The position numbers and the translations under genes were made by a program. The notes beneath the pieces are model-generated. The model was not told the origin of the DNA. It made no database searches and saw nothing but the letters and a program-made list of their open reading frames with translations. Shown one piece after another: positions 50,370 to 64,000 of a stretch of DNA of 64,000 nt (its first letter is position 1; each line of letters begins with the position of its first letter). Source of the DNA: a virus; IMG/VR virus record IMGVR_UViG_3300031578_000005, positions 1 to 64,000 of that record. One strand, 5' to 3'.

Positions 50370-50375
50370 CAATAT

Positions 50376-50458: not shown

Positions 50459-50466
50459 CACTATAT

Positions 50467-50537: not shown

Positions 50538-50628
50538 CTAAGATAGTTGAATCAATTATTATGAATGCATAAGAATTATTAATGGGCTTAGAACTTGGAA
50601 TTAAATATTAATTCATTATATTTGCAAA

Positions 50629-50856: not shown

Positions 50857-50969
50857 AGAAAACGCTAAAATAAATGGTGAATGGGGCGACCATGTAAGAA
50901 AATGGGGCAAATTTTTCACAGCTAAATTACGTAGAAATATTGATAAACAAATAATTAAAAAAGAGTACG

Positions 50970-51377
50970 ATGAATTATAATTTATTCTTAGATGATATAA
51001 GAGTTCCTAGAAATGTATACTCATATATACATAATCCCATATACGCTATGGATGAGTGGATAATTGTTCGAAACTATGATGATTTTGTAAAATACATTGA
51101 AAAAAATGGTATGCCCGAAAAAATTTCTTTTGATCATGATTTATCAGCAGAACATTATGACCCGGACTTATATGGTAGTGAAACATATGATGAAGTATAT
51201 GATCAATTTGAAGAAAAAACCGGATATGATTGTGCTAAATGGCTCATTAATTACTGTATTGAAAATAAATTAGATTTGCCCAATGAAATCCTAATTCACT
51301 CGATGAATATTACCGGTGGGTTGAACATCAAATCATTATTTGATACTTACAATAAATCATTAAAAGTAAATTCGTGA
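50970..51377 (+). CDS. Cyclic-phosphate-processing receiver-like domain protein
   Basis: LFLDDIR.P, ISFDHDL, KTGYDCAKWL, HSMN. Confidence 0.75.
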   Translation: MNYNLFLDDIRVPRNVYSYIHNPIYAMDEWIIVRNYDDFVKYIEKNGMPEKISFDHDLSAEHYDPDLYGSETYDEVYDQFEEKTGYDCAKWLINYCIENKLDLPNEILIHSMNITGGLNIKSLFDTYNKSLKVNS

Positions 51378-51499
51378 TTTGCAAATTGCAAATTATTATG
51401 TGTTGAGATTATAAGTACTAAAATTTATTACTAGAACATATTAATAATCAACAACATATAAATTAAACTAAAAATAATTTAAAAAAAGTTTGCAGATAT

Positions 51500-51530
51500 T
51501 GTAACATTTACTAACTTTGTTGCGTATTTA
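51500..51530 (+). promoter_or_regulatory. Putative promoter of tRNA operon 2 (TGTAAC-N17-CGTATTTA)
   Basis: Recurrent motif 46 nt upstream of leader 2. Confidence 0.7.
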
Positions 51531-51576
51531 GATAAAACGAATTAAGAATTTTTGAATAATTAAATAAATAATACAA

Positions 51577-51666
51577 ATGAAAAATTTACTCGACATATTG
51601 ATGGTAGTCTTAGCAGTTGACCTATTATGGGCAGATGCAGAGGATAAACTATGTTTAGTCGGGTAA
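51577..51666 (+). CDS. Leader peptide 2 MKNLLDILMVVLAVDLLWADAEDKLCLVG
   Basis: 18 of codons 4-23 are Leu/Val/Asp/Ala/Glu/Trp, matching the downstream tRNAs. Confidence 0.82.
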   Translation: MKNLLDILMVVLAVDLLWADAEDKLCLVG

Positions 51667-51693
51667 TGAAAAATTACACTCCTTTCTTAATTG

Positions 51694-51727
51694 AAAAACC
51701 CGACAACTAAAAATGGTCGGGTTTTTT
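51694..51727 (+). terminator. Attenuator terminator 2
   Basis: aaaaacccgac-loop-gtcgggtttttt. Confidence 0.85.
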
Positions 51728-51808
51728 GTTTTTATAGAAAGGATGTTCTTTGACATGTTGGAAATTTAAAAATAATTGGAGTGGGTTTGTAATCCACTCC
51801 TAAATAAC

Positions 51809-51878
51809 GACTGCGTAGTATAATGGCTAGTATTTCTCACTGTCTATGAGAGGGCGGGGTTCGAATCCCACGTAGTCG
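51809..51878 (+). tRNA. tRNA-Asp(GTC)
   Basis: tctca-ctGTCta-tgaga, G73. Confidence 0.85.
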
Positions 51879-51882
51879 GCAT

Positions 51883-51956
51883 GGTGCGTTTGGCAAGTTG
51901 GTTAAGCCGTAAGACCTTCAATTTTACATTCATGGGTTCGAGTCCCATACGCACTA
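51883..51956 (+). tRNA. tRNA-Glu(TTC)
   Basis: taaga-ccTTCaa-tttta (C33). Confidence 0.8.
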
Positions 51957-51962
51957 CGATAT

Positions 51963-52034
51963 GTTCGGTTCGAATAATGGTCAGTTCACAAAATTTTCAA
52001 TTTTGTTATAGCGGTTCAAATCCGCTACCGAGTA
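51963..52034 (+). tRNA. tRNA-Glu(TTC)
   Basis: caaaa-ttTTCaa-ttttg. Confidence 0.85.
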
Positions 52035-52173
52035 CATTTAAAAACATACGGTTTAGGACCGTTATGGTTTCGACCATAGAAGAGTGACGATGTTCGCTAC
52101 TACGTCACTCTTTAATTTAAAAATCTTGACAATACCGCTATTATTTAATACATTTGCAATAAATCTTGAAATC

Positions 52174-52665
52174 ATGGCATTGGATGTTAATAGTGAAAAG
52201 GGTAAAGAAAGCGTTCGTCAAGAAGCTGAAATGTTAAAAGGTGTTGAAAAATGCTGGAATTATAATGTCGTTGTGACAAATAAAAATAAAGAGGCAATTT
52301 GTGATGGTTTTTTAGTAAAAAAAAGAGAAGTTGTTGCAATATTTGAAAGTAAATGTAGGGACCTATCATATAATGAATTGGAAAATTATGGTTCATGGCT
52401 TATTACATATGATAAAATAAAAACCTGTAAATATTTATCTGAATTATTGAAAGTACCATTTATTGGTTTCTTGTATCTAATCAAAGACAATATCACACTT
52501 TTTTGGAAAATCACTGATTCAGATGGAAAGTACTTATTTGAATTTAATCATAATAAAACATTAACGCAAGAAACAATTAATGGTGGCAAAATATACAGAG
52601 ATAATGCATATTTGCCATTTTCAGAAGCTAAATTTGTTCACAAAGAAGAAATTATGTTTCCATAA
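52174..52665 (+). CDS. PD-(D/E)XK-family nuclease-like protein
   Basis: CDGFL...FESKCR. Confidence 0.6.
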   Translation: MALDVNSEKGKESVRQEAEMLKGVEKCWNYNVVVTNKNKEAICDGFLVKKREVVAIFESKCRDLSYNELENYGSWLITYDKIKTCKYLSELLKVPFIGFLYLIKDNITLFWKITDSDGKYLFEFNHNKTLTQETINGGKIYRDNAYLPFSEAKFVHKEEIMFP

Positions 52666-52715
52666 TGAATGATATTACAAACACAATTAATTAATTTGTT
52701 TATAATATAGTACAT

Positions 52716-52786
52716 GGGGAATTGGCGTAAAGGTAGCGTATTTGGCTTACATCCAATTGGCAATAGTTCGATTCTATTATTCCCTA
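52716..52786 (+). tRNA. tRNA-Val(TAC)
   Basis: ggggaat/attccct; ttgg-ctTACat-ccaa. Confidence 0.82.
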
Positions 52787-52939
52787 CTTCGTCTGGAAAA
52801 TCCAGAAATAAATTAGCAGTTATCGGCTTATTCATCGATAAACATTCGTTATCGGTTATTAAGACGATAAAGCTATCTGGAAAATTCAGATAATTTCACA
52901 AAATCATTGTTTTATTTAAAATAAACTCAGTATATTTAT

Positions 52940-53089
52940 AACTTGTCAGTATAAGACATTAAAACCTCGTTAGGGACTAACGAGTACACGAGTGGAGTAA
53001 AAGTAAGACTTCTAGCTTTTCGGAGCAGTAAGCAAATTGCCGTGAAACTCGAAGCTCAATCCATCACGAAGTGTGGATGGGTAGTTCAC
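52940..53089 (+). mobile_element. Second non-autonomous IS200/IS605-type remnant (omegaRNA/right end only)
   Basis: Ends gaagctcaatcc...ggatgggtagTTCAC; TTTAT immediately 5'. Confidence 0.65.
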
Positions 53090-53173
53090 ATAGGTATCGT
53101 CTAAAGGTAAGACGCTTCCCGTCCGAGGGAAGAGATGGGAACTGCAGATAAGGTTCAATTCCTCCTGCCTATG
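53090..53173 (+). tRNA. Atypical tRNA-like gene (8-nt anticodon loop, identity undetermined)
   Basis: ataggta/tgcctat acceptor, gtct/agac D-stem, cttcc-cgtccgag-ggaag, ggttcaattcc. Confidence 0.55.
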
Positions 53174-53178
53174 CAAAT

Positions 53179-53262
53179 GCTCTTATGGTGCAACTGGAGT
53201 GAGACACAGCAGTCTTAGAAACTGTTTCTTAAATGGTGTGGGTTCGAGTCCCACTAAGAGCA
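53179..53262 (+). tRNA. tRNA-Leu(TAG)
   Basis: gcagt-ctTAGaa-actgt. Confidence 0.85.
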
Positions 53263-53939
53263 CAATTTACTTCTAACTTATTATTGATTACATTAATAAC
53301 AATATTTAAATATTTTATTGAGGTTTGTTCTTTGAAATACTTTTGTTGGGAGACATCGATTATACATAATTCAATTCCTTGTTCTAAACAGGCTTGAAAC
53401 TTACGTTGGTCATTATTTTGGATTTGACCTAATTTATCTTCACCAAATATTGGTTCGTAATGGAAAATACCATTAAGTTCAAATGCTAATTTAAGTGAGG
53501 GAATGTAAATATCTAATTCTGAATTGATGGTTGTTTTATTATTGAATAATATTTCTAAATTTCGGTATTGTTTGGTTAATTCAGTTTCAAGATATTGCTC
53601 AAGTTTCGACCTACGATTACCATTTGTTTTGTGTTTATTATTATATGTGGCAGCACATGAACGTGAACAAAAGTGATTGGTAGATTTTTTTTTATCTGAT
53701 AATTGAATCGTAATATTGTTGCCACAATTAGTACATTGAATTATTTCTTTTTTACCTTGTGACGATTGATAACAATTTAATGAACAATATTTACCACTAA
53801 ATTTAGCACTTTTACATGGGATTTGTTTTATTTTACGTTTTGTTAAATAAAAAATATTTGCACAGCCATAACATTTGCATGGTAATTTATCTAATGATTT
53901 TGATGTTAAAAACTCTTGTTCTGTATATAATTTAATCAT
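53229..53939 (-). CDS. Zinc-finger PD-(D/E)XK putative homing endonuclease
   Basis: Several CxxC/FCS.SC motifs, ELDIYIP..KLAFELNG..HY; antisense within the tRNA cluster. Confidence 0.75.
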   Translation of the reverse strand: MIKLYTEQEFLTSKSLDKLPCKCYGCANIFYLTKRKIKQIPCKSAKFSGKYCSLNCYQSSQGKKEIIQCTNCGNNITIQLSDKKKSTNHFCSRSCAATYNNKHKTNGNRRSKLEQYLETELTKQYRNLEILFNNKTTINSELDIYIPSLKLAFELNGIFHYEPIFGEDKLGQIQNNDQRKFQACLEQGIELCIIDVSQQKYFKEQTSIKYLNIVINVINNKLEVNCALSGTRTHTI

Positions 53940-54088
53940 ATAATGATGTTTATAATAAATACTTATAATATTCATTTTCTGTACGTATCATCAGTACAAA
54001 ATTTATCGAAATAAAAAACTGCTTATTCTGGGGGATGATAGTAAGTTCCAGACACTAAGGTAGGGGTGATAGTCTACATAGGCGTAAT

Positions 54089-54162
54089 GGGGTCGTAGCT
54101 CAATTGGCGAGAGCACCGCACTTGCAATGCGGAGGTTAGGGAATCGTGCTCCCTCGACTCCA
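54089..54162 (+). tRNA. tRNA-Ala(TGC)
   Basis: G3:U70, ccgca-ctTGCaa-tgcgg; atypical T-loop. Confidence 0.9.
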
Positions 54163-54216
54163 CAAATGACTGTAAATCAACAATTTACAGTCATTATTTA
54201 AAGTAATCATTTACAT

Positions 54217-54303
54217 GGCTCAGTGGTGGAAATGGCAAGACACGCAGGACTTAAAATCCTGTCCACCGAAAGGTGGGTGTGGGTTCGACTCCCATCTGAG
54301 CTA
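54217..54303 (+). tRNA. tRNA-Leu(TAA)
   Basis: cagga-ctTAAaa-tcctg, long variable arm. Confidence 0.92.
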
Positions 54304-54392
54304 CAATTACCGGATATTGCCAGATAAAATTTTAGTTTATTGATTATCAAATATTTAATAAATTATATTTTACCAGATATTGCCGGATACAT

Positions 54393-54466
54393 GGCTCTAT
54401 AACCCAAATGGTAGAGGTGGTGTCTTCAAACGGCATTTGTTTTCAGTTCGAATCTGAATAGAGCTA
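54393..54466 (+). tRNA. tRNA-Leu(CAA) lacking the long variable arm
   Basis: ggctcta/tagagct; gtgtc-ttCAAac-ggcat. Confidence 0.75.
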
Positions 54467-54494
54467 CAACAGTATTTATAATAAAACTAAGGTT

Positions 54495-54980
54495 ATGAAT
54501 TATAAATTATTTTCTTACTTAATGATGATACTGGTGTTTGTATCATATGTTGTATTCATCTGGTCAAGATATGGCATACAAAAATCAATATCTGCCAGTT
54601 ATTATGTATTGCCTGAAAAAATCAATGTGTTATTCACATTATTTTGTTGGGGATTTGCATTTCCTGCGATAATTGTTGCACAAACGCCATTAATGTTTTT
54701 GGCAGGTTCTGCAATTGTTTTTGTTGGTGCTGCCGCAAGATTTAAAGAAAAACTAACAAAATCTGTTCATATGATAAGTGCTACAATTGGTGTTATTTTA
54801 AGTCAGGCATCAATATTTTTTGATTATCACCTGTGGCATCTTAATGCAATATTTGTATTATCGTCATTAATTATATTAGGTGTGCTATATTTTAAACACA
54901 TCGATAAATATATATGGTGGATTGAAATTTTTGCATTTTCAACAATATGTATTGCATTAGGTATTAATTCAATATTTTAA
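54495..54980 (+). CDS. Multi-pass membrane protein
   Basis: Five to six hydrophobic segments; SISASYY motif. Confidence 0.75.
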   Translation: MNYKLFSYLMMILVFVSYVVFIWSRYGIQKSISASYYVLPEKINVLFTLFCWGFAFPAIIVAQTPLMFLAGSAIVFVGAAARFKEKLTKSVHMISATIGVILSQASIFFDYHLWHLNAIFVLSSLIILGVLYFKHIDKYIWWIEIFAFSTICIALGINSIF

Positions 54981-54985
54981 AATAC

Positions 54986-55056
54986 ACGTCTTTGTTGTAA
55001 TGGTAGCATAAATCTCTCCAAAAGATTTAGTACTTGTTCGAATCGAGTAAGACGTG
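54986..55056 (+). tRNA. tRNA-Trp(CCA)
   Basis: aatct-ctCCAaa-agatt, G73. Confidence 0.85.
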
Positions 55057-55118
55057 CAAAATAAAGTTTATTGAAACAATTACTTTTGCTGTTCGAGATT
55101 GTTTTTATGTTAAAATAA

Positions 55119-55475
55119 ATGATTATGAATAGCAAAACAGATAATTTTTCAGATATTGAAATAATTAAAATACTTTCAGAGTGTAAATCATTTAGAGAGG
55201 TTTTAATTAAAATCGGTTATAGTAGTAATGGAAGCGGTGGTTATAGTCTACTCAAACAACAATTAAAAAAACGTGGCATTCAAATACCTAAATATCATTA
55301 TTATGGTGATGGAAAAAAACGTAGCTTATATACATTAGATGAAATTTTAGTTGAGAATTCAACATATACTGCAAGAGGTCGATTAAAAAAACGTTTGGTT
55401 AAAGAAGGTATGTTAGAATATAAATGTGTTTCTGATAACACAATACGTAAATGGCTTAAATTATATGAAAAATAA
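55119..55475 (+). pseudogene. Internally deleted HNH-endonuclease-like gene
   Basis: L.EILVENS.Y....LK.RL..EG..EYKC joined directly to VSDNTIRKW; HNH core missing. Confidence 0.6.
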
Positions 55476-55489
55476 ATGTGCTAATACAT

Positions 55490-55560
55490 GCGTCTATCGT
55501 TCAACGGTAAGACAACTGCTTCCAAACCAGTTAATGAGGGTTCGATTCGTTCCCGGTGTG
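55490..55560 (+). tRNA. Degenerate tRNA-Trp(CCA), probable pseudogene
   Basis: ttCCAaa loop; mismatched acceptor and T stems. Confidence 0.5.
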
Positions 55561-55689
55561 CTAAATCGAATTTAAATTTTAGTGGAATAATTTCAGCTTT
55601 GATTTTCATTTGTAACAAAACCAATTTTTTTTCGTATATATTACCAATAATATTTGTTAATTAACACAAAATGATTTAAATTTGCTATT

Positions 55690-56406
55690 ATGTATATAAT
55701 CTCAAAAAAGAAAGATTTTTATGATGGTGTTGTCTCGACAATGGGTATTGATAAGTCTATTGTTTTTAATCGAGATGATGTTGAAATTGGAGAAAATGAA
55801 TATCCAAAATTATTTAGCCACTCCAAAGGTTATTGGAATTCATTAATGAATGATACCATTAATAATTTACATCACCACAATATAAAAAAAGAGCATAAAG
55901 GCGATTATCAAGCATATAACTATTTTGTTATTGGATTTTGTGGAAAACTTTATTTGGGTATGAAGTTATATACAAAAAGTCAGAACATCTTTGATGGTTT
56001 AACAACAAAAATAATTTATGATATTGACTTAATTACTGAAATTATTGAAAACACCGGCTATCGAAGCAATTTAATTGATGAAATTAATTATGTTCGTAAT
56101 TATAATGCATTAGACATTTTTAGAAAATTTAATACACCTGTATTTGTATATGATAATGACTATAACCGAATCTCGATCAATGATAGAAATGAGCATAAGT
56201 TCATTATTAACGCCAATATATACGAATATGAATTTTATAAAATCTTTGATAGTTTTCATGCATTCCAAGAAATTCAAATGTTTATTAGCGGTGTATTGGG
56301 TAGTGGTGAAAAGGAAATAATCAAAATTACAGATAAAGATAAAATCGCTCAACATGGCTTTGACTATAAATATAGTTTTAGAAAAGATAAAGAAAATAAA
56401 AAATAA
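55690..56406 (+). CDS. Hypothetical protein
   Basis: KDFYD...IGFCGK.Y...FQEIQMFI..VL...KI..HGFD...SFR. Confidence 0.75.
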   Translation: MYIISKKKDFYDGVVSTMGIDKSIVFNRDDVEIGENEYPKLFSHSKGYWNSLMNDTINNLHHHNIKKEHKGDYQAYNYFVIGFCGKLYLGMKLYTKSQNIFDGLTTKIIYDIDLITEIIENTGYRSNLIDEINYVRNYNALDIFRKFNTPVFVYDNDYNRISINDRNEHKFIINANIYEYEFYKIFDSFHAFQEIQMFISGVLGSGEKEIIKITDKDKIAQHGFDYKYSFRKDKENKK

Positions 56407-56413
56407 GTTCTTT

Positions 56414-56776
56414 GGGGGTGACCGGATTTGACAGCATGTTAGACTGGTAATGTAAGCAGGTAGTAGTTGAATCAGGCTACTTTAAAAAGGTTCAAAGTTA
56501 TAAACGCAAACAATTCCGAGGACATTATGTCCATTCCGACTTCACACTTAATTGTGGGAAGAAGTGCATTTGCAGAGAAAACTGAACTCGCATTTGCTGC
56601 ATAGGAAATAACTAATACAGTTAAGAACTCCTGAGTTGAAAGGATAAATTTAATACAGTTTCATGTTTGAACTGGTAGAATCAATCAATACTTTGTCGGT
56701 TTAGAGAAATCGAATAAACCTGTAGAAAACGTATTAATCACATGTGTGGACGTGGGTTCGAATCCCACTACCTCCA
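56414..56776 (+). ncRNA. ssrA: tmRNA
   Basis: GGGGGTGAccGGaTTtGAC 5' end; GACGTGGGTTCGAATCCCACTACCTCCA 3' end; tag ORF 56506-56604 ending AFAA*. Confidence 0.93.
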
Positions 56777-56796
56777 CTTAAGTAATTATAAATAAG

Positions 56797-57231
56797 ATGA
56801 TTATGAGTACAGCAAGAAGTAGATTTATTGAAGCGATTGATGTTTGGATTAAGTCTGACGACGGAGAAGCCTACCTTAAAGACGAACGAATTCGACATGA
56901 AATTCAAATTGGAAGATATAAACGTTTTGATGACTGGTTGAAATGCAATGACTTTGATCTGCTAATATATCGACTAATTTTAAAGCATGACATAAGCTAT
57001 CGTGAAAAATATTATCATAATGGATTCGAACCCGGACCAAATAATTTATTACAATTCATTTTTGACTATATCGACAATAAATTCGAACCAATTGCCGTAG
57101 CTGAACTTGATTGCGAATTTTCAAATAATATCTGGTTATTTAAAGGATATTATTTTCAATGTATTTATGGTCAAGGAGCAATATTTAAAATATATAATAA
57201 AGCAGATATGCGAGAAATAATATCAATATAG
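56797..57231 (+). CDS. Hypothetical protein
   Basis: ORF. Confidence 0.65.
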   Translation: MIMSTARSRFIEAIDVWIKSDDGEAYLKDERIRHEIQIGRYKRFDDWLKCNDFDLLIYRLILKHDISYREKYYHNGFEPGPNNLLQFIFDYIDNKFEPIAVAELDCEFSNNIWLFKGYYFQCIYGQGAIFKIYNKADMREIISI

Positions 57232-57383
57232 ATGAAAAAAATCAAGCAACAAAAAAACGATGACTGTAATTGTGGTAAGTCAGTTAAAATAACAGAAAGA
57301 AAAAAATTAATATATAAGAACAATAAGAAATGAAAGAAAATTTTAAAGTCTTGTAATGCAACTCAAATGTTGCTACAAGAATA

Positions 57384-57713
57384 ATGAAAGTAAAAAAAAT
57401 TGTAGATTCAACAACAAATCGTTATGTATTCAATCGTGCGTATAAAGAATATTTAGAACGCAAAGGTAAAATTCGTTGCTCTTATTGCCAATTTCATAAA
57501 AATGAAAATGATAATAGAAAATGGTATGGTGGAATAAAACATAATGAATTTTATGATGATATGTTGACATGTTATGGTGGTGTTAAAGAAACTCATACTA
57601 GATATCCTAATTGGAAATTAATTTCTAAAAATAAGAAACAGTGGATGAATAAAGGAATTAAAATCACTGAAAAATATGATTTAAAACGTATTTATATTGA
57701 AATAAAATTTTGA
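57384..57713 (+). CDS. Hypothetical protein
   Basis: CSYC..H..EN motif. Confidence 0.65.
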   Translation: MKVKKIVDSTTNRYVFNRAYKEYLERKGKIRCSYCQFHKNENDNRKWYGGIKHNEFYDDMLTCYGGVKETHTRYPNWKLISKNKKQWMNKGIKITEKYDLKRIYIEIKF

Positions 57714-57724
57714 GGTAATCACAT

Positions 57725-57798
57725 GGCGACATCGTTCAATGATAGGACAGCTCTCTCATAAGGAGTTGATACGAGTTCAATTCTCGTTATCCCAACCA
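57725..57798 (+). tRNA. tRNA(CAT), Met or Ile2, weak acceptor stem
   Basis: gctct-ctCATaa-ggagt, encoded CCA, three acceptor mismatches. Confidence 0.6.
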
Positions 57799-57845
57799 TT
57801 GGTCATTTTTGTACTAAGATAGTATTTATATTTAAAAGTACATTT

Positions 57846-58499
57846 ATGGCAAGAAAGGAAAAAACATATCATTTTATTTACAAAACGACCAATCTATTGA
57901 ATGACAAATATTATTATGGAATGCATTCCACTTATGATTTGAATGATGGATATTTAGGTAGTGGTAAAAGGTTGAGATATTCAATAAATAAACACGGAAA
58001 AGAAAATCATGTTAGAGAAATTATTGAATTTTTACCAAATTATAATGAATTGATTAAAAGAGAAGAAGAAATTGTAAATTTAAATGAAATTGCAAAAGAA
58101 AATTGTTTAAATTTAAGAGTTGGAGGTTCTGGTGGTTTGAATGGATTATCTAAGGAATCGTTAATGAAGATTAGAATTGCATCGTCTAATTATATGAAAA
58201 GTTTGTGGAAAAATGGTGGTGAAGAATATCGAAATAAATTCAGTAAAATTAACACAATAAATCTAACAAATGCACATAAAAACAATAAAATAAAATATGA
58301 TAATTTTAAAAACAGAAAACATCGAAATGAAACGATTGAATTAATGAAAAAAAAGAAAATTGGTTTTGGACGTGGAAGCGATAATTCTCAATATAATACC
58401 TGTTGGGTTACAAGAAACGGAATAAATAAAAAAATAAAAAAAGAGAAACTGTCCGAATTCATTAAATTGGGATGGATTAATGGAAGAAAATTTAAATAA
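57846..58499 (+). CDS. GIY-YIG (Seg-like) homing endonuclease
   Basis: FIYKTTN...YYGMH...YLGSG. Confidence 0.85.
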   Translation: MARKEKTYHFIYKTTNLLNDKYYYGMHSTYDLNDGYLGSGKRLRYSINKHGKENHVREIIEFLPNYNELIKREEEIVNLNEIAKENCLNLRVGGSGGLNGLSKESLMKIRIASSNYMKSLWKNGGEEYRNKFSKINTINLTNAHKNNKIKYDNFKNRKHRNETIELMKKKKIGFGRGSDNSQYNTCWVTRNGINKKIKKEKLSEFIKLGWINGRKFK

Positions 58500-58522
58500 T
58501 CCTAAGTTGGCTCTGGTTTAAT

Positions 58523-58960
58523 TTAAAATTTAACAATACAATTTTTATTTTTAAAATCAAAACTTAGACCATTAATATATAATGAACTGCCCTTTTGAAG
58601 ATTTGCGTCATTATCGATAATAAATTTCCATTCGAAGTCATTGATATTTTTTGGTGTTTCTTGTTTTTGTTCATCATTTTGTTTATCAAATAATTTTAAT
58701 AAAAACGTGCCTTCGACGCTTTCAACATCAACAATAAAATTTTCAACCCCCATGTCATTTAACCAGAAAGAAATTCCCCAATTAACAACAATATCACTTT
58801 CAGTAACTTCACTATCAAATTCATTTGTGAATGCACTGTAATTGTAAAAAGATGAATTAGTTAGCCTTTCTTTAAAATGAAATCTATCATCATTCATTAT
58901 ATATGATTCATTGAGAAATTTCTGTATTTCCTCAAAAATTATAGTTTCACTTAACTTCAT
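58523..58960 (-). CDS. Hypothetical protein with IIFEEIQKFLNE leader
   Basis: ORF, late motif upstream. Confidence 0.7.
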   Translation of the reverse strand: MKLSETIIFEEIQKFLNESYIMNDDRFHFKERLTNSSFYNYSAFTNEFDSEVTESDIVVNWGISFWLNDMGVENFIVDVESVEGTFLLKLFDKQNDEQKQETPKNINDFEWKFIIDNDANLQKGSSLYINGLSFDFKNKNCIVKF

Positions 58961-59065
58961 AACAAATATATTTTAAATATAAATACTATTAATTCAATTA
59001 AAATTAATATATTTGTTTTCTGTAACAAATATAAAAACTTTACGTATATAATTTAAACATTAAAA

Positions 59066-60163
59066 ATGAAATTACTTGAAAAAATTAATTGGGAAGTCCT
59101 AGATACATATATTGAAAATGGATTGATTATGTCCAATAAGCATCCTGAATACGATATTTGGATTTTAAATTACACACCAAAAACACAATCAAAAAAGTTA
59201 TGGGATGTATATACTATATCATGTCGTGGATTAATTATCGATGTTGATGGTAATATTTTAGCCCGACCTTTTCAAAAATTTAAAAACTTTGAGGAACATG
59301 ATTCTTCAGAAATTGATATGTCATTACCTTTTGAAATATTTGAAAAGCGTGATGGATCATTAATTATATTATTTTACTACGAACTCAGAATGGAATGGAT
59401 TGTTGCATCAAGAGGTTCATTTGCTTCAGAACAATCAATTGAAGCTAAAAAAATATTAGAGTCAAAAGAAAATGCTTTTAAATTCTTAGACATAAAAAAT
59501 ACGTATTTATATGAAGTTCATTATGGCGAAAATAGAATTGTGGTAGATTATGGTGACTTAAGAGACGTGGTGTTATTAACTGTTATTAATTCAAAAACCG
59601 GCTATGAATTATCTTATGATGCAATGAATGAACAATATTCAAATTATTTTGCAATTGTCAAAAGGTTTGATATAAATATTAATTCACTGGATGATTTAAA
59701 AAAACTTGAAGAAGAAAATAAAGAAGGTTTTGTTGTTAAATTTTCGAACAATTTTAGAGTTAAAGTAAAATTTAGTGAATACATTAGATTGCATGGAATA
59801 TTAACAAATGTTTCAAACATAATTGTCTGGGAACATTTGAAGAATAACTATGATTTCGACACATTATTAGACAGAGTTCCTGACGAATTTTATTCATGGC
59901 TTAACAAAACCATTGATAAATTAAAAGGTAATTTCAATGAAATTGAAAGATTATCATTAAAAGAATTTATTAGAATTTACTATATTAATGAGATATCTAC
60001 TCGCAGAGAATTTGCAATGGAAGCAAAGAAGTGTAAATATCGATCGATCTTATTTAAATTGTATGATAAAAATCAATACGATGAAATTATCTGGAAAATG
60101 ATTAGACCAGTTTATAGTAAGCCGTTTTCTCGTCATTTTGAAAATAGTTTGGAAATTAATTAG
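59066..60163 (+). CDS. RNA ligase 1 (T4 Rnl1-like)
   Basis: CRGLI, RPFQKF.N, EKRDGSL (KxDG), SRGSF, EGFVV, RVKVK. Confidence 0.9.
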   Translation: MKLLEKINWEVLDTYIENGLIMSNKHPEYDIWILNYTPKTQSKKLWDVYTISCRGLIIDVDGNILARPFQKFKNFEEHDSSEIDMSLPFEIFEKRDGSLIILFYYELRMEWIVASRGSFASEQSIEAKKILESKENAFKFLDIKNTYLYEVHYGENRIVVDYGDLRDVVLLTVINSKTGYELSYDAMNEQYSNYFAIVKRFDININSLDDLKKLEEENKEGFVVKFSNNFRVKVKFSEYIRLHGILTNVSNIIVWEHLKNNYDFDTLLDRVPDEFYSWLNKTIDKLKGNFNEIERLSLKEFIRIYYINEISTRREFAMEAKKCKYRSILFKLYDKNQYDEIIWKMIRPVYSKPFSRHFENSLEIN

Positions 60164-60204
60164 TCCATTATACATTGTCATAGTATTTATATTAAAATAA
60201 TATT

Positions 60205-60999
60205 ATGGCATATGTATATAAACATCTCAGAAAAGATAATAATGATGTATTCTATATTGGCATTGGATTATCTAAAAATTTTAAACGAGCATATTCTAAA
60301 TGTAATAGAAATAACTATTGGAAAAATATTGTGAATAAAGTAGATTATATTATTGAAATTATTCATACAAATATTACATGGGAAGAAGCATGTAATATTG
60401 AAATAAAATTAATAAAAGAATATGGTCGAAAAGATTTGAATGAGGGTGAATTGGTTAATATGACTAACGGTGGAGATGGTATTGTTGGGTTAATTCAGAC
60501 TGATGAACATAGAAGAAAAAATAGTGAAGCAAATAAAGGAAGACCTAAAAGTACCAAACATATTGAAAAATTCAAAAATAGAATTCAGTCTGATGAAACC
60601 AAACGAAAAATTAGTTTAAAGAATAAAGGAAGAATTTGTACTGATGAAACCAAACGAAAAATTAGTGATAAATTAAAAAATAAGATGATTGGTGATAAAA
60701 ATCCGTTCTTTGGTAAAGAACATACTAATAAAGCTAAAGAACAAATAAGTAATTCCTTGAAAGGACGCAAATTGTCCGAAACAACAAAAAATAAAATATC
60801 TGAATCAAATAAAGGAAAAACTCGCATAATTTCCGAAAAATCAAAAATTAAAATGAGTATTTCTGCAAAACATAGAAACATTAGACCACCATCAAGAAAA
60901 GGAACGTGTTGGGTAACAAAAAATGGTGTAACTAAATCAATTAAAATTAATGATTTAGATTTTTACATTTTTGATGGTTGGGTAAGAGGACGTAAGTAA
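60205..60999 (+). CDS. GIY-YIG homing endonuclease with NUMOD3 repeats
   Basis: YVYKH...FYIGIG, N.T.GGDG, DETKRKIS repeats. Confidence 0.85.
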   Translation: MAYVYKHLRKDNNDVFYIGIGLSKNFKRAYSKCNRNNYWKNIVNKVDYIIEIIHTNITWEEACNIEIKLIKEYGRKDLNEGELVNMTNGGDGIVGLIQTDEHRRKNSEANKGRPKSTKHIEKFKNRIQSDETKRKISLKNKGRICTDETKRKISDKLKNKMIGDKNPFFGKEHTNKAKEQISNSLKGRKLSETTKNKISESNKGKTRIISEKSKIKMSISAKHRNIRPPSRKGTCWVTKNGVTKSIKINDLDFYIFDGWVRGRK

Positions 61000-61082
61000 T
61001 TATATAATTTTCTTTACTATTTATTAGTATGGATATTATTAAAATAATAAAAGAAGAAATTGAAACACTGATGTAGTATTGG

Positions 61083-61177
61083 TTATAACGGTTGGGTGTA
61101 TGAGAAGGTTTGCTTAGATGAACTTTCAAATTATCCACAACTGCTGATAGCAAACTTTCTTATACACCTTGTTATAC
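61083..61177 (-). repeat. attC-like site D
   Basis: TTATAAC...ggtgtatgagaaggtttgct / agcaaactttcttatacacc...GTTATAC. Confidence 0.8.
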
Positions 61178-61292
61178 ACAGTACGGTTTAATTAGGTAGA
61201 AACTAAATTGAAAACGAAATAAAAACTTTTTAAAAATGTGTGATGGAAAATTTAATTCTGAATATTTATATATAAAATAAAAACGAAATACT

Positions 61293-61685
61293 ATGAGTAA
61301 AGAAATTAGACAAATGATTGATAAAGTTAAGAACTTTAAGCAATTTGTGAATGAACAAAGAGTTCCATATAACGAATTACAAAATATGGTTAAAGATTTC
61401 TTGAATAAAGAAATTCAATTTACAATGGATGATATTCAAAAATATGTTGTTGGTAACATTGAAAGTATTGATTATCACACAAATGGTAGAGGGTTTGAAG
61501 TTAGTGTTGGTAATTATAAAAGTGGTGACGGTGTTAAAGATGGTAGGGGGTCATTATCAATATTTCCAGATGAAAATAAAATTATCTTTTCACATAATGA
61601 TTTTAAACCACACCCAGTTAGTGGTTTGAATGAATTTACGAATAATTTTTTTCAATTTATTAGTAAAATAGATTTCAAAAAATAG
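61293..61685 (+). CDS. Cassette-borne late protein with MSKEIRQMIDKVKNFKQFVNE leader
   Basis: Between sites D and E, with its own TATTTATA motif. Confidence 0.72.
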   Translation: MSKEIRQMIDKVKNFKQFVNEQRVPYNELQNMVKDFLNKEIQFTMDDIQKYVVGNIESIDYHTNGRGFEVSVGNYKSGDGVKDGRGSLSIFPDENKIIFSHNDFKPHPVSGLNEFTNNFFQFISKIDFKK

Positions 61686-61775
61686 TGAATATTTTTTGAA
61701 TGTAAAAATGTGTGGTGGAAATCTTTAAAAAGTTTTTTACATAGAACTTAATTTGAAACACTAATATAGTATTGT

Positions 61776-61866
61776 GTATAACGTTGAGTGTATGAAACGT
61801 AGCATGCACAACACTTAATATAAACCACTAACCTTGATTGGCTATGTTTTATACACGTTGTTATAA
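61776..61866 (-). repeat. attC-like site E
   Basis: GTATAAC...gtgtatgaaacgtagc / gctatgttttatacac...GTTATAA; tgtgtataac is complementary to gttatacaca of site D. Confidence 0.8.
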
Positions 61867-61976
61867 CCAGTACGGTAAAATTACCACAAATGTTAGATTG
61901 AAACACCGAACAAAAACTTTTAAAAATGTGTGACGGTAATATAATTACACTACTATTTATATTAAAATATTATTAT

Positions 61977-62299
61977 ATGGAAAATGAAATGAGAAAACTG
62001 ATTGACCAAGTTAAGAATTTTGGTAAATCATTAAACGAAAATGTTGGTAATACAACATACGCAATATATTTAGGAACTGATATTATTTATAATCATTTAT
62101 CTAATGAAAGATTAAAATCAGTACTCTATTCATTGGTGAAGATTTAGGTGAAGATTTAGGTGATTACATTATTGTTCAAAACGGAACAAACCACACCAAA
62201 CCAGCAGATGAATTAGGATGGGATTTGTCAAACGTAAAACCTTTTGATAACATTAATTCACTACGTACCAAAATAGATAATATTGCCAACAGAATTTAA
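61977..62299 (+). pseudogene. Frameshifted cassette gene with MENEMRKLIDQVKNFGKSLNE leader
   Basis: Stop at 62147 near the ggtgaagattta duplication; another frame continues to about 62299. Confidence 0.55.
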
Positions 62300-62374
62300 T
62301 TTTTTATTGTGGATTGGAGATTTTTAAAAGTTTTTGTAACAAAATGCTAATTAGAACGTATAATGTAGTATTGG

Positions 62375-62440
62375 TTATAACTATTATATATAAAACATAA
62401 CACTTAACTAATTGATTGTAAACATTAAAAACAAGTCAAC
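62375..62440. repeat. Array-terminal (attI-like) site, divergent copy 3
   Basis: tggttataac is complementary to gttataacca of site E, then TAACTA..ATATAAAAC resembling 745 and 32464. Confidence 0.5.
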
Positions 62441-62503
62441 TTTAGGAAAGTATAAAAAATTTTTTAAAGTTAAACGTAGTATTTAAAAATAATTTAAAAT
62501 TTT

Positions 62504-62533
62504 TGTAACATTTATTAGTTTATTACGTATTTA
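62504..62533 (+). promoter_or_regulatory. Putative promoter of tRNA operon 3 (TGTAAC-N16-CGTATTTA)
   Basis: Recurrent motif 32 nt upstream of leader 3. Confidence 0.7.
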
Positions 62534-62565
62534 TGATTAACTTTGTAGAATTAAAATTTGAAATA

Positions 62566-62667
62566 ATGAAAAAAGGTAACACATATTATAAAAAGTATTA
62601 TTATAAACATTATGTTTGTAAGACTGGCAATACTGTGTTGTTATCTGAAAAGGAAACTGATAATTAA
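62566..62667 (+). CDS. Leader peptide 3 MKKGNTYYKKYYYKHYVCKTGNTVLLSEKETDN
   Basis: 9 of 10 consecutive codons are Tyr/Lys; precedes terminator and Tyr/Lys tRNAs. Confidence 0.85.
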   Translation: MKKGNTYYKKYYYKHYVCKTGNTVLLSEKETDN

Positions 62668-62684
62668 AGATAAACGATACTAAC

Positions 62685-62723
62685 AAAAAACCCGGTCTTA
62701 ATTTAATAAGACCGGGTTTTTTT
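62685..62723 (+). terminator. Attenuator terminator 3
   Basis: aaaaaacccggtctta-atttaa-taagaccgggttttttt. Confidence 0.88.
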
Positions 62724-62743
62724 ATGCTTATTTTCATTGTAAT

Positions 62744-62824
62744 TGGGTGGTAGGTAAGTGGTTAAAACGGATTGACTGTAAATCAATTGCTTCGGCTTCG
62801 GGGGTTCGAATCCCTCCCGCCCAA
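62744..62824 (+). tRNA. tRNA-Tyr(GTA)
   Basis: attga-ctGTAaa-tcaat, variable arm gc-ttcg-gc. Confidence 0.88.
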
Positions 62825-62831
62825 CAATAAT

Positions 62832-62915
62832 GCATCCATGCCAGAGAGGTTATGGACTGGACTTTTAATCCAGACTCCGAACGGAGTAACGTAGATTCGA
62901 GTTCTACTGGATGCA
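62832..62915 (+). tRNA. tRNA-Lys(TTT) with long variable arm
   Basis: ctgga-ctTTTaa-tccag; extra arm actcc-gaac-ggagt. Confidence 0.8.
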
Positions 62916-62968
62916 CAGTGGGGACTGTTTATAATTTTCATAGTACATGAAAGCGTAGAAAATTAAAT

Positions 62969-63042
62969 GACTCCATAGCTCAATTGGTAGATGTAACTGG
63001 CCTTTAACCAGTGGGTTCTGGGTTCGAGTCCCAGTGGGGTCA
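62969..63042 (+). tRNA. tRNA-Lys(TTT)
   Basis: actgg-ccTTTaa-ccagt (C33). Confidence 0.82.
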
Positions 63043-63126
63043 CTAACTAAACTTTAATGAACTGAAGTTTTGTCAACCACCAATCATGATTAGGTTCATA
63101 GGCGGGGAAGATTTATAAGTTCAAAC

Positions 63127-63194
63127 GCCAACGATTCAGGGTATGGACGGCTCTGTAAAAGCCCAGCCTGAAGGTTCGAGTCCTTCCGGTGGCA
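63127..63194 (+). tRNA. Compact 68-nt tRNA-like gene with GTA (Tyr) anticodon
   Basis: gccaacg/cggtggc, short D arm, ggct-ctGTAaa-agcc, canonical T arm. Confidence 0.6.
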
Positions 63195-63325
63195 CAATGT
63201 TTAATTAAGTAGCTATCAATTTATTATGATAACTACTTAATTAAAATATTTAAATTACTTGCATTTTTATTTAAGATTAATTATCTTTGTTGAAAATAAC
63301 TTTATTTTAATGCTTATGTATAAAA

Positions 63326-64000
63326 ATGGCAAATAATAAAAAGAAAGTAACTACTGTAGTTACTACAACAACAGAAATCATTAATAATCCCATCAATGAA
63401 AAAACTCAAATAATCTGTATTCTTGATAGAAGTGGTTCTATGTCAAGTATTATGTCAGACAGTATTGGTGGATTTAATACTTTTCTTAAACAGCAAAAGG
63501 AATTAAAAGACGAAGCAACATTAACAATTGCATTATTTGATGACAAATATGAAATGCTTTATGATGATGTTGACATTAAAAAAGTTGATGAACTCACCAA
63601 TAAGATTTGGTATCCTCGTGGAACTACTGCATTATATGATGCAATTGGAAAGACAATTAATACCGTTAAAGCAAATCATTTAAAATCTGGCAACGAAAAA
63701 CCCACCAAAGTACTGGTATGTATTGTAACTGATGGACATGAAAATGCCAGTAGCGAATATGGACATGACATGATTAAAAAACTCATTAAAGATTGTGAAG
63801 ATGATGATTGGAATTTTATTTATTTTGGCGCAAACCAAGATGCATTTGCAGTAGGAAATTCACTTAATATTAGTGGAAATAATACATACACTTATACATC
63901 TACCAGTACTGGTGTTCAAGATATGTCATTTATATTAAGCAATACTGTAACTAGCTATCGTTCAATGAATACTAGTGATAGTAATTTTAAATATTCCTCC
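63326..64000 (+). CDS. von Willebrand factor A domain protein (runs off the window)
   Basis: ILDRSGSM (MIDAS), PRGTTALYDAIG, VTDGHENAS. Confidence 0.88.
   Translation, partial: MANNKKKVTTVVTTTTEIINNPINEKTQIICILDRSGSMSSIMSDSIGGFNTFLKQQKELKDEATLTIALFDDKYEMLYDDVDIKKVDELTNKIWYPRGTTALYDAIGKTINTVKANHLKSGNEKPTKVLVCIVTDGHENASSEYGHDMIKKLIKDCEDDDWNFIYFGANQDAFAVGNSLNISGNNTYTYTSTSTGVQDMSFILSNTVTSYRSMNTSDSNFKYSS

Follow-up and report, generated by a model that had tools for sequence, protein, structure and literature searches.

A putative leader-peptide attenuator in front of a Tyr/Lys tRNA operon of a large uncultured phage

Transcription attenuators that depend on the translation of a leader peptide are found in enterobacterial amino-acid operons. 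The leaders trpL, hisL, pheL, and leuL belong to this group, as do the multivalent leaders thrL and ilvL. The leader pheM of the Escherichia coli pheST operon, which encodes phenylalanyl-tRNA synthetase, is a further case. T-box elements bind uncharged tRNA directly by means of a specifier codon, and this recognition is independent of translation. The leader pheL is the subject of PMC3082878. A long tRNA array, the trn operon of Anabaena sp. PCC 7120, is silent and becomes induced under translational stress; its control is exerted at the promoter, where the repressor TrcR binds direct repeats (PMC8421152; PMC10272220). The terms attenuat-, leader, and terminator do not occur in the main text of PMC8421152. 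No published account of leader-peptide attenuation of tRNA genes was found, and the unit described here would, as far as the literature search shows, be the first case of such control acting on tRNA genes.

The unit is found in IMG/VR record IMGVR_UViG_3300031578_000005, which is a large uncultured phage (jumbo phage). The record is 128.5 kb long with a CheckV completeness of 39%, and the window, i.e., the stretch of 64,000 nucleotides that was analyzed, corresponds to its positions 1-64,000. The genome has a G+C content of 29%; Tyr and Lys codons are frequent in it, with Lys as the commonest residue (9.8%) and Tyr making up 5.0%. Eight sequencing runs were listed for this DNA, none of them an RNA run; the DNA runs are labeled as soil and freshwater, which are candidate habitats only. 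From 5' to 3' the unit contains a promoter-like motif, a leader ORF, a terminator, and tRNA genes, and all of these lie on the + strand. Judged from the sequence, the unit is likely to be a leader-peptide transcription attenuator of the ribosome-mediated kind that gates a four-gene Tyr/Lys tRNA operon, with read-through when ribosomes stall on Tyr/Lys codons. The original prediction had read the locus in this way. Each of the expected elements (leader ORF, codon run, terminator, antiterminator) is present, and they are conserved with compensatory changes in related phages.

The unit shares with the attenuators of amino-acid operons a short leader, a run of cognate codons, a terminator, an antiterminator overlapping the 5' arm of the terminator, and the presumed read-out of ribosome position. 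Since the leader combines two amino acids, Tyr and Lys, it most resembles the multivalent thr and ilv leaders. It differs in that tRNAs would be regulated rather than genes for biosynthesis or transport, making the product the sensed molecule, and in being phage-borne, with several operons that each have their own matched leader and jointly cover nearly all amino acids. As in pheM, leader-peptide attenuation would act on a component of the translation machinery that serves the amino acid in question; however, pheM is located on the chromosome, responds to one amino acid only, and regulates a synthetase protein rather than tRNA genes. The Anabaena array, as far as the reports describe it, differs in being controlled at the promoter, in having no codon matching, and in being bacterial rather than viral. 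The decision between terminator and antiterminator would be set by the state of a specific tRNA, as in a T-box, but the phage unit has a conserved ORF and matches no T-box model. A T-box riboswitch was rejected, as none of 29 Rfam matches with E up to 1 in 48000-64000 is a T-box, and no other cis-regulatory family matched the unit at this E value. Over 62602-62735 the only Rfam matches were weak, sub-threshold ones to unrelated sRNA and plastid UTR families, on the terminator.

The leader ORF (62566-62667) has 33 codons followed by a stop codon (62665-62667), and was assigned by ORF calling, start context, and comparison with relatives. Its start codon resembles that of a real gene: with a start-context matrix derived from 58 long ORFs, it scores at the 99.5th percentile among all triplets of this kind in the record. 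For the in-frame alternative upstream, at 62533, which is part of the promoter-like region, the score is at the 70th percentile. The 32 residues after the initiator include six Tyr and seven Lys, and this share of 13/32 should be compared with 11.8% expected from the short ORFs of the record (P = 3.3e-5) and 14.8% in its long ORFs (P = 3.5e-4). Ten control codons (62584-62613) form the core; nine of them encode Tyr or Lys, and the tenth His. When the whole peptide is considered, the match of this leader to its own tRNA block is 41%, the lowest among the four leaders of the phage.

The density of the run was evaluated against all 732 start-codon-initiated ORFs of 20-60 codons in the six frames of the 128.5-kb record. 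This leader is the only one in which at least eight residues of a ten-residue window are Tyr or Lys (it has nine, the runner-up seven), and between 7e-4 and 5e-3 such windows would be expected across the whole set. The caveat attached to the original prediction, that Tyr/Lys runs of this kind might be common in the short ORFs of this genome, can thus be dismissed. If any pair of amino acids is allowed, nine of ten is reached by five of the 732 ORFs. The codon run by itself is rare rather than unique, and what counts is its location before exactly Tyr and Lys tRNAs. That there is no switch at all, and that a chance or independently functional small ORF happens to precede a leaky constitutive terminator of upstream transcription, is hardly credible. 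Tyr/Lys-rich frames do arise in A+T-rich DNA, and the exact core run, in any synonymous spelling, is found at 10 other places in IMG/VR; but no tRNA follows within 1,500 nt at any of these places, and the density seen here is that of a single short ORF in the record.

The operon itself begins with a tRNA-Tyr (62744-62825; ARAGORN and Rfam) located 20 nt after the T-run of the terminator. It is followed by a tRNA-Lys of 85 nt with a long extra arm (62832-62916; ARAGORN, and 56.8 bits with Rfam) and by a second tRNA-Lys (62969-63043; ARAGORN, and 53.9 bits with Rfam). The fourth gene is a weak Tyr-like tRNA of 69 nt lacking a long extra arm (63127-63195); Rfam scores it at 29.7 bits over 63127-63194 against a cut-off of 29, and ARAGORN reports it as tRNA-Tyr at 63127-63195 at a relaxed threshold only. 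The order is that of the original prediction, Tyr, Lys, Lys, Tyr-like, with the last gene being the weak one. A long A+T-rich hairpin with a weak T tract (63196-63250; RNAfold -17.1 kcal/mol) after the last tRNA is a possible end of the operon.

Folding places a strong intrinsic terminator at 62685-62723, made up of an A-tract, a 5' arm that includes 62692-62700, a loop of 6 nt, a 3' arm, and a run of seven Ts. The stem has 16 pairs, six of which are G-C, and the core stem has a free energy of -16.1 kcal/mol. Codons 18-21 of the leader ORF contain the 5' strand of the antiterminator (segment 2, 62619-62627), which forms eight Watson-Crick pairs and a single G-U pair with 62692-62700 in antiparallel orientation. 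The latter stretch is part of both terminator and antiterminator, and the two structures are mutually exclusive. The Tyr/Lys leader, its core, these two pairing 9-mers, and all coordinates that had been proposed were reproduced when they were recomputed. The full-length fold has a free energy of -40.5 kcal/mol (z = -4.16), which was equaled by none of 200 shuffles. While the full transcript folds into the terminator, the antiterminator is present in the minimum-free-energy fold of 62566-62702, corresponding to the transcript before the 3' arm of the terminator is made. The antiterminator duplex has a free energy of -12.6 kcal/mol, whereas dinucleotide-shuffled versions of the ORF region (n = 300) had a mean of -7.0 (sd 1.8), and three of the 300 gave an equally good duplex. 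Minimum-free-energy folds further contain a small hairpin (62602-62621) that is formed by the last control codons and ends at the 5' edge of the antiterminator, and it may be a pause or 1:2 element. Relatives have a differently spelled hairpin at this position, with changes on both sides in two sequences. The 1:2 pairing between control codons and antiterminator stretch is clear in the full-length folds of the relatives and weak in the window, where the small hairpin alone is clear.

We infer that the leader ORF is translated, and that stalling, its timing, and the direction of the response follow the scheme below. Transcription would begin just upstream of 62566, and a ribosome would start on the 33-codon leader. 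As long as Tyr- and Lys-tRNAs are plentiful, the ribosome would pass the core and reach 62619-62627; this strand would then be unable to pair, the terminator would form, and RNA polymerase would halt 20 nt before the tRNA-Tyr gene. If decoding of Tyr or Lys codons is slow, the ribosome would linger on the core, leaving 62619-62627 free to pair with the nascent 62692-62700, so that the terminator is blocked and the tRNA genes are transcribed. The new tRNAs would speed up decoding and shut the switch, a negative feedback whose product is at the same time what is sensed.

This scheme was compared with a scan of ribosome positions, in which folding is modeled under the constraint of a bound ribosome. 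The antiterminator forms with the A site anywhere from codon 1 to codon 14, disappears from codon 15 to codon 26, and forms again from codon 27 to codon 33, with no pairs at the stop codon. The stop codon is located 37 nt past the antiterminator strand in the window, which is another difference from the amino-acid operon attenuators; the distance is 24 nt in the relatives and -1 to 21 nt in the other three leader types. A terminating ribosome consequently does not sit on 62619-62627, and the other three leaders have a cleaner geometry than the Tyr/Lys unit.

The truncated transcript of the window forms the antiterminator also when no ribosome is present, meaning that a failure of translation would give read-through as well. 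The same is seen in seven of the 12 distinct leader-terminator units of the Tyr/Lys type that were collected from related phages. Together with the response of the Anabaena tRNA array, the nearest published case, to general translational stress (PMC8421152), this could suggest that the switch reports general translation capacity, such as shut-off, ribosome shortage, or inhibitors, with the codon content being secondary. We find this quite improbable. It leaves unexplained why the leaders match their own tRNA blocks and change when the blocks are re-partitioned, and in the remaining five of the 12 units the ribosome-free fold lacks the antiterminator (four have no pairs, and L003 has an unrelated upstream pairing). 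What pairs with the antiterminator stretch in those five units is the control codons.

The core as spelled in the window is found in no other IMG/VR contig, and the case for conservation is accordingly based on homology by position with a leader family that has diverged. The relatives are phages of 327-365 kb with a Tyr/Lys leader at the equivalent position; their ORF has 29-31 codons, with the Tyr/Lys core at matching codon positions. A motif scan of IMG/VR retrieved 40 contigs with 28 distinct leader peptides. When two contigs that end within 24 nt after the ORF are set aside, 37 of the 38 scored contigs have Lys and Tyr tRNAs next, while the last one continues for 421 nt without a tRNA. The tRNA genes follow the terminator closely, in relatives at a distance as small as 4-14 nt. 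This leaves no room for a separate promoter, which argues that the tRNAs are made only by read-through.

The pairing itself is retained in the relatives, so the concern that it might not be conserved has no basis. Most relatives have a different terminator arm together with an exact 8-nt complement in the ORF, located at an equal distance from the start codon. The window and L026 each have yet another spelling of the arm, and each has a matching antiterminator. Three arm/antiterminator spellings thus occur at one position, which is a compensatory change. The pairings were scored sequence by sequence; MAFFT misaligned the variable terminator arms. In L004 and L011 the reading frame over the antiterminator has changed while the nucleotides are retained, which argues against a conserved function of the peptide in this part. 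The number of extra states among relatives at codon positions 1, 2, and 3 is 30, 35, and 44, respectively, and may be read as a modest third-position excess in this leader type. Joint conservation, with compensatory changes, of ORF, antiterminator, and Lys/Tyr tRNAs is a further objection to the idea of an accidental ORF before a leaky terminator.

When 185,579 bacterial species genomes were scanned with the leader motif of the relatives, 12 matches were obtained. One of these is a real unit with Lys/Tyr tRNAs (L083). It is found on a contig of 362,763 bases that has been filed as a bacterial MAG and is probably a phage. The other 11 matches were rejected, being chance hits inside genes or lacking tRNAs. 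No cultured relatives were found; for the neighboring 754-residue vWA protein the best match among GenBank phages is 32% identical. A search with the window region gave matches limited to tRNA genes of unrelated phages, and the leader regions of three other lineages gave either no match or a tRNA only.

The unit is not alone in its genome. The original prediction had pointed to an architecture in common with other leaders, and in addition to the Tyr/Lys leader the window phage has three further tRNA-operon leaders of this same architecture. In six phages, 24 of 24 tRNA blocks have a leader, 22 of which were found by the pipeline and two by a closer look. The leaders are of four types, Pro/His/Gln, Asp/Glu/Val/Leu/Ala/Trp, Tyr/Lys, and Cys/Asn/Ile/Ser/Phe/Gly/Thr/Arg, and each type matches its own block. 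The true assignment of leaders to blocks ranks first of 24 permutations in all six phages.

In 29 of 34 units, comprising all four types, an antiterminator duplex as good as the native one was given by at most 4 of 300 shuffles. The median free energy of the duplex is -14.6 kcal/mol for 21 leader terminators, whereas the 67 other terminators in these phages have a median of -7.3 kcal/mol (Mann-Whitney P = 7e-11). Five of these other terminators reach the value of the window's duplex, and four of the five are leader terminators that were missed by the labeling. Ordinary terminators of these phages are thus without an upstream complement, which is difficult to reconcile with there being no switch.

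The same design extends to other lineages. The tRNAs of the more distant G007 fall in the groups Arg/Leu/Gln, His/Tyr/Thr/Asp/Pro/Trp/Gly, and Ala/Glu/Leu/Ser/Cys, and its three leaders are rich in just these sets. In G006 a single leader of 42 codons, which contains all 20 amino acids, precedes an array of 41 tRNAs; the probability of this by chance is about 0.7-1.2%. In another lineage the leader has 19 types of amino acids and the array 19 isotypes, and Pro alone is absent from both. At the level of isoacceptors, G007 has Leu tRNAs in two operons, and the Leu codons of the leaders are not cleanly separated (3/4 and 2/4, by eye). A pattern consisting of a terminator plus a boxA-like element was found at 80 places. 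There is no tRNA within 2.5 kb at 36 of them, and most of these 36 are hairpin-less and resemble chance matches. For 24 distinct leaders recovered by the pattern, a Jaccard test of leader against array gave P<0.01 in 10, P<0.05 in 14, and no significance in 10, the measure being blunt since arrays are cut by the ends of the loci and one array may hold several transcription units.

The presence of one design at the blocks of the other amino acids as well points to a general control of tRNA supply, and this role is favored for that reason. We consider it rather probable that many uncultured phages with tRNA arrays, including this one, have a codon-resolved controller of tRNA supply, in which every operon is placed behind a translated "checklist" of the amino acids that its own tRNAs carry and is transcribed only during stalls on it. 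The tRNAs would then be made on demand and in a self-limiting manner, and whenever host tRNAs are lost, be it through anticodon nucleases or otherwise, the controller would respond automatically.

Anticodon nucleases that attack tRNA-Lys or tRNA-Tyr are known, and cut tRNA-Lys is repaired by T4 Rnl1. The same attenuator might accordingly have been selected mainly as an inducible counter-defence, the inference of the original prediction, replacing tRNA-Lys and tRNA-Tyr cut by a host anticodon nuclease, and the logic of a stall sensor would respond automatically to such an attack. A gene for a T4 Rnl1-type RNA ligase is located about 2.4 kb upstream (59066-60163; PF09511, 59.9 bits with a cut-off of 28.3) and is the only hint towards tRNA repair. 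Still, this is an unlikely main role. Lys and Tyr are not singled out, as the blocks of other amino acids have the same design in six phages, and in other lineages whole arrays covering 19-20 amino acids are gated likewise. No member of the polynucleotide kinase/phosphatase families PF13671 and PF08645 was found in the 128-kb record, which is 39% complete.

The architecture as found in amino-acid operons would also fit a classical starvation sensor, where scarcity of Tyr or Lys, and thereby uncharged tRNA, stalls the leader and the output of tRNAs is incidental; stalling alone cannot distinguish a low level of tRNA from a low degree of charging. This reading is very improbable, since extra tRNA does not relieve a shortage of amino acids, and the feedback would be pointless. 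Furthermore, the regulated operon of the window contains tRNA genes only, and tRNAs are the sole regulated genes also in the 37 contigs mentioned above.

It has long been asked why phages have tRNA genes, and the usual answers are compensation for codon usage, replacement of degraded host tRNAs, and escape from defences that target tRNAs. If control of tRNA supply is the true role, the phage gauges the supply and tops it up on demand, and the question becomes what opens the switch during infection. With the regulated product being the sensed molecule, the unit would then be a minimal negative-feedback loop. The leader sequences could aid annotation by predicting which tRNAs form one transcription unit, and synthetic biology in Bacteroidota-like hosts could use them as compact stall sensors with codon specificity.

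The host signals resemble those of Bacteroidota, which also separates the unit from the amino-acid operon attenuators, and no Shine-Dalgarno sequence was seen by eye. A two-box Bacteroidota pattern precedes leaders 1 and 2 of the window. It is not enriched there (8 matches where 5.1 are expected; 12 of 100 shuffles reach 8), and promoters were for this reason rejected as a basis for host assignment, leaving Bacteroidota as a lead only. The first scan of IMG/VR with the promoter motif gave no matches. A weak promoter may overlap the terminator at 62685-62723. The promoter-like region before the leader (62503-62550) was delimited by a motif scan and comparison by eye. It consists of one copy of a recurrent two-part motif (62503-62530), after which 62537-62544 looks similar to the downstream box found in Bacteroidota promoters, as judged by eye against their consensus. 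In the record the two-part motif has 29 copies on the + strand but a single one on the - strand, and it is present upstream of all four leaders of the phage.

The record, of which the window is the first 64 kb, comprises 128,513 bases with 29.3% G+C at a CheckV completeness of 39%; since its complete relatives measure 327-365 kb, with 42-65 tRNA matches each, it represents a jumbo phage. The Tyr/Lys leader ORF lies on the + strand, like all parts of the unit, and runs for 33 codons (6 Tyr and 7 Lys) from 62566 to a stop codon at 62665-62667. Nine of the ten codons in its core (62584-62613) specify Tyr or Lys. A strong intrinsic terminator comes next at 62685-62723 (a 16-pair stem with a 6-nt loop, then a run of seven T), and behind it tRNA-Tyr, tRNA-Lys and tRNA-Lys, in that order, as called by ARAGORN. 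The fourth tRNA (63127-63195) is Tyr-like and weak, scoring 29.7 bits against an Rfam cut-off of 29 and being called by ARAGORN at a relaxed threshold only, while a long A+T-rich hairpin at 63196-63250 may close the unit. ORF, core, terminator and tRNAs are all found where the original prediction placed them. The tRNA-Lys at 62832-62916 has 85 nt with a long extra arm and adjoins a normal-sized copy with the same anticodon, and the Tyr-like tRNA, of 69 nt, is without the long arm usual in bacterial tRNA-Tyr.

Within the ORF, 62619-62627 forms a putative antiterminator strand that pairs with 62692-62700 inside the 5' arm of the terminator by forming eight Watson-Crick pairs and a single G-U pair. 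The minimum-free-energy fold of the transcript before the 3' arm exists contains this helix; the full-length fold has -40.5 kcal/mol (z = -4.16). The unit is probably a ribosome-mediated attenuator. The existence, exclusivity and conservation of its parts are direct observations, whereas everything beyond them, including translation of the ORF and termination, we infer from the sequence.

The original prediction had asked whether Tyr/Lys runs of this density are common in random short ORFs. They are uncommon: the six frames of the record hold 732 ORFs that open with a start codon and span 20-60 codons, and at least eight Tyr plus Lys in a ten-residue window are found in one of them, namely the Tyr/Lys leader with nine, and the runner-up has seven. 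Depending on the background used, 7e-4 to 5e-3 such windows are expected over the 732 ORFs. If any amino-acid pair is permitted, 5 of the 732 ORFs reach nine out of ten, so the weight lies on the position of the run ahead of exactly Tyr and Lys tRNAs. As a negative control, the core residue run in any synonymous spelling was located at ten other places in IMG/VR, and the 1,500 nt downstream of each contain no tRNA. A weak point of this unit is that the phage uses Lys (9.8%) and Tyr (5.0%) often. When the ORF region was dinucleotide-shuffled 300 times, three of the shuffles equalled the antiterminator duplex of -12.6 kcal/mol.

Four units in the record share the same layout of promoter-like motif, short ORF starting with Met-Lys, terminator and tRNA block; three lie within the window and the fourth leader unit is found beyond it, at record 72020-72145. 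The leader rich in Pro, Gln and His precedes tRNAs for Pro, Pro, His, Gln, Gln and Gln, and the leader rich in Leu, Val, Asp, Ala, Glu and Trp precedes those for Asp, Glu, Glu, Val, Leu, Ala, Leu, Leu and Trp together with a tmRNA. The Tyr- and Lys-rich leader precedes Tyr, Lys, Lys and Tyr-like, while the one rich in Ser, Ile, Asn, Thr, Gly, Phe, Arg and Cys precedes Cys, Asn, Ile, Ser, Phe, Gly, Ile, Gln, Thr, Arg, Arg, Arg and Ser. When the share of leader residues with a tRNA in their own block was compared with the amino-acid frequencies of the record's short ORFs, the match was 10/23 for the Pro/His/Gln leader (expected fraction 0.106; P = 5.5e-5), 21/28 for the Asp/Glu/Val/Leu/Ala/Trp leader (0.275; P = 2.4e-7), 13/32 for the Tyr/Lys leader (0.118; P = 3.3e-5) and 35/40 for the Cys/Asn/Ile/Ser/Phe/Gly/Thr/Arg leader (0.509; P = 1.2e-6). 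The whole-peptide match of the Tyr/Lys leader, 41%, is the lowest of the four and counts as a weak point.

The two-part promoter-like motif that precedes all four leaders occurs 29 times on the + strand of the record and once on the - strand, is dense at record 98-123 kb ahead of small genes, and is probably a phage promoter class. Between its copy at 49494 and the Pro/His/Gln leader at 49798, a comparatively G+C-rich, structured-looking stretch of about 250 nt (49540-49790) matches no Rfam family at E up to 1 and is possibly an unknown RNA. Leaders 1, 2 and 4 have a 12-nt motif after their terminators (window ~49961-49972 and ~51746-51757; record ~72224-72235); no copy is evident behind the window's Tyr/Lys terminator, and leader terminators at many loci of distant phages are followed by the motif as well. 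From the consensus we take it to resemble the boxA of rRNA antitermination, and it may make the polymerase processive through untranslated tRNA arrays.

By way of a 754-residue vWA protein encoded between the third and fourth blocks, 19 related loci were gathered, and the record and five complete relatives were read over their entire tRNA regions. All four leader types are present in each of these six phages (24/24 units, 22 by the pipeline and two on closer look, one with an A-interrupted T-run and one with a homing-endonuclease-like ORF inserted behind the leader). In the related genome G002 an ORF that by eye resembles an HNH homing endonuclease lies between the Pro/His/Gln leader (locus L023, 8431) and the first tRNA (L023, 9335). 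The true leader-to-block assignment gives the best total match among the 24 permutations in 6/6 phages. For the Tyr/Lys type, 12 distinct leader-terminator sequences were collected; the leader of the relatives has 29-31 codons, and its core, which occupies the codon positions of the window's core, has Tyr or Lys in eight places of ten. Scanning IMG/VR for the motif recovered 40 contigs, which encode 28 distinct leader peptides and include some of those already gathered with the vWA protein; two contigs end within 24 nt after the ORF. Lys and Tyr tRNAs come next in 37 of the 38 contigs with at least 400 nt downstream, and in the other one a tRNA is absent from the remaining 421 nt. The window's own spelling of the leader was found on no other IMG/VR contig. 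A Tyr/Lys leader followed by Lys and Tyr tRNAs also occurs on L083, a contig of 362,763 bases that is assigned to a bacterial MAG and probably represents a phage genome placed in a bacterial bin.

The antiterminator pairing, which the original prediction had singled out for a check of conservation, is kept with compensatory spellings in relatives. Most of these have a terminator arm unlike that of the window, with an exact 8-nt complement in the ORF 57-67 nt from the start codon (53-63 nt in the window). Locus L026 has yet another arm with a matching antiterminator, and L006 keeps the pairing by a G-U pair. A one-base difference in L004 and L011 puts the antiterminator into another reading frame, so that the peptide is altered and the nucleotides are kept; the frame of the G002 Pro/His/Gln leader likewise differs across conserved nucleotides, and in another relative's Pro/His/Gln leader an arm change is mirrored in the antiterminator with an altered residue. 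The duplex is equalled by at most 4 of 300 shuffles in 29 of 34 units, covering all four types, and the five weaker units all belong to the fourth. Other terminators of the same phages are without a comparable upstream complement, their median best duplex being -7.3 kcal/mol (n = 67) against -14.6 kcal/mol (n = 21) for leader terminators (P = 7e-11). Five "ordinary" terminators reach the window's value, and four of these are mislabelled leader terminators.

The leaders also follow REARRANGEMENTS in more distant relatives, which arrange their tRNAs differently (vWA protein identity 53-56%, 41-44% G+C). In G007, one such phage, a leader rich in Arg/Leu/Gln precedes the block Arg-Arg-Leu-Leu-Leu-Gln-Gln, one rich in Tyr/Trp/Gly/Pro/Thr/Asp precedes His-Tyr-Thr-Asp-Asp-Pro-Pro-Trp-Gly-Gly-Gly, and one rich in Ser/Cys/Leu/Glu/Ala precedes Ala-Glu-Glu-Leu-Ser-Leu-Cys-Ser. 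Another, G006, has a single 42-codon leader with all 20 amino acids ahead of one 41-tRNA array (chance 1.2% by simulation; 58 of 7,937 protein windows show all 20). A scan for a terminator tail plus the boxA-like motif gave 80 places, 44 with tRNA arrays downstream, among them other lineages on contigs of 43-150 kb. One such leader has 19 amino-acid types and its array the same 19 isotypes, Pro alone missing from both; in another, inspection by eye shows 12 types among the 23 residues that follow the initiator, and these are the types of the array's first 12 tRNAs. A blunt set-overlap test on 24 distinct leaders gave P < 0.01 in ten and was not significant in ten. In two G+C-richer, more distant relatives (L010 ~1780-1960 and L014 ~1270-1445) a short Met-Lys frame with an in-frame amber codon, then a hairpin and T-run, seen by eye, precedes tRNA-Met and a tRNA with an amber-reading anticodon; this could be a leader sensing a suppressor tRNA.

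Full-length folds of the relatives show the terminator together with a classical 1:2 helix, built around a small inner hairpin, in which control codons and antiterminator stretch are paired; this helix is weak in the window. To follow the ribosome, the transcript was folded to the end of the 5' arm with a 30-nt footprint held single-stranded codon by codon. While the A site moves over codons 1-14, which takes it through the Tyr/Lys core, the window's antiterminator forms with 7-9 pairs; it is lost at codons 15-26, back at 27-33 and absent at the stop codon. The scan is cleaner in the Pro/His/Gln and most fourth-type leaders, where the antiterminator persists through the control codons and is then absent or much reduced to the stop. 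Asp/Glu-type leaders are mixed, three of five holding 5-9 pairs up to the stop. Further weak points of the window are a stop codon 37 nt beyond the antiterminator strand and an antiterminator already present in the ribosome-free fold. On the basis of the scan a kinetic race is proposed. A ribosome delayed on the Tyr/Lys codons would leave 62619-62627 free to capture the emerging 5' arm, and the polymerase would continue into the tRNA genes; a fast-decoding ribosome on or past 62619-62627 at the critical moment would let the terminator form. Newly made tRNAs would relieve the stall. Because tRNA output cannot cure an amino-acid shortage, the switch would most sensibly respond to the supply of tRNA and not to that of amino acids.

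Such a stall sensor is compatible with the further suggestion of the original prediction, that the operon could be an inducible answer to anticodon nucleases cleaving tRNA-Lys or tRNA-Tyr, and the tRNA region includes a T4 Rnl1-type RNA ligase gene (PF09511, 59.9 bits) at 59066-60163, 2.4 kb upstream. The same gate, however, precedes tRNA blocks for the other amino acids, and a polynucleotide kinase/phosphatase family partner was not found in the record, at 39% completeness. We regard counter-defence as unlikely to be the primary role. The attenuator part of the prediction is supported and the counter-defence part is not; any counter-defence would come at no extra cost with a general control of supply.

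The Tyr/Lys attenuator has trp-type parts and would work like the leader-peptide attenuators known from amino-acid operons. Its nearest counterparts in form are the multivalent thr and ilv leaders; by the kind of gene controlled, it is closest to the pheST leader. The defining difference from the amino-acid operons is that the regulated genes here are tRNAs. A full-text literature search, which reached few subscription journals, turned up no account of tRNA genes under leader-peptide or attenuator control, whether in phages or in other organisms. Among published functions, the closest is that of an Anabaena tRNA array, silent and induced under translational stress, whose control lies with the repressor TrcR acting at promoter repeats (PMC8421152, PMC10272220); the words attenuat-, leader and terminator are absent from the main text of PMC8421152. 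The data support a known switch mechanism with tRNA genes as a novel target.

The tRNA islands contain other genes as well. Endonuclease-like ORFs interrupt the tRNA blocks of the window, e.g., at 53229-53975 on the - strand. The phage-encoded tmRNA in the block of the second leader (56414-56777, 111.8 bits) is found at the same place in four of the five complete relatives, none being called in G004. Among the fourth-block tRNAs are genes for a YqeY-like protein (PF09424, 69.6 bits; locus L001 14948-15349, record 76948-77349) and a protein with a ribosomal L7/L12 C-terminal domain (PF00542, 67.8 bits; L001 17875-18231, record 79875-80231). At E up to 1e-8 the complete 319-kb relative G008, the record behind locus L021, yields no tRNA match, against 42-65 in the relatives, and offers a natural comparison for the purpose of the tRNA islands.
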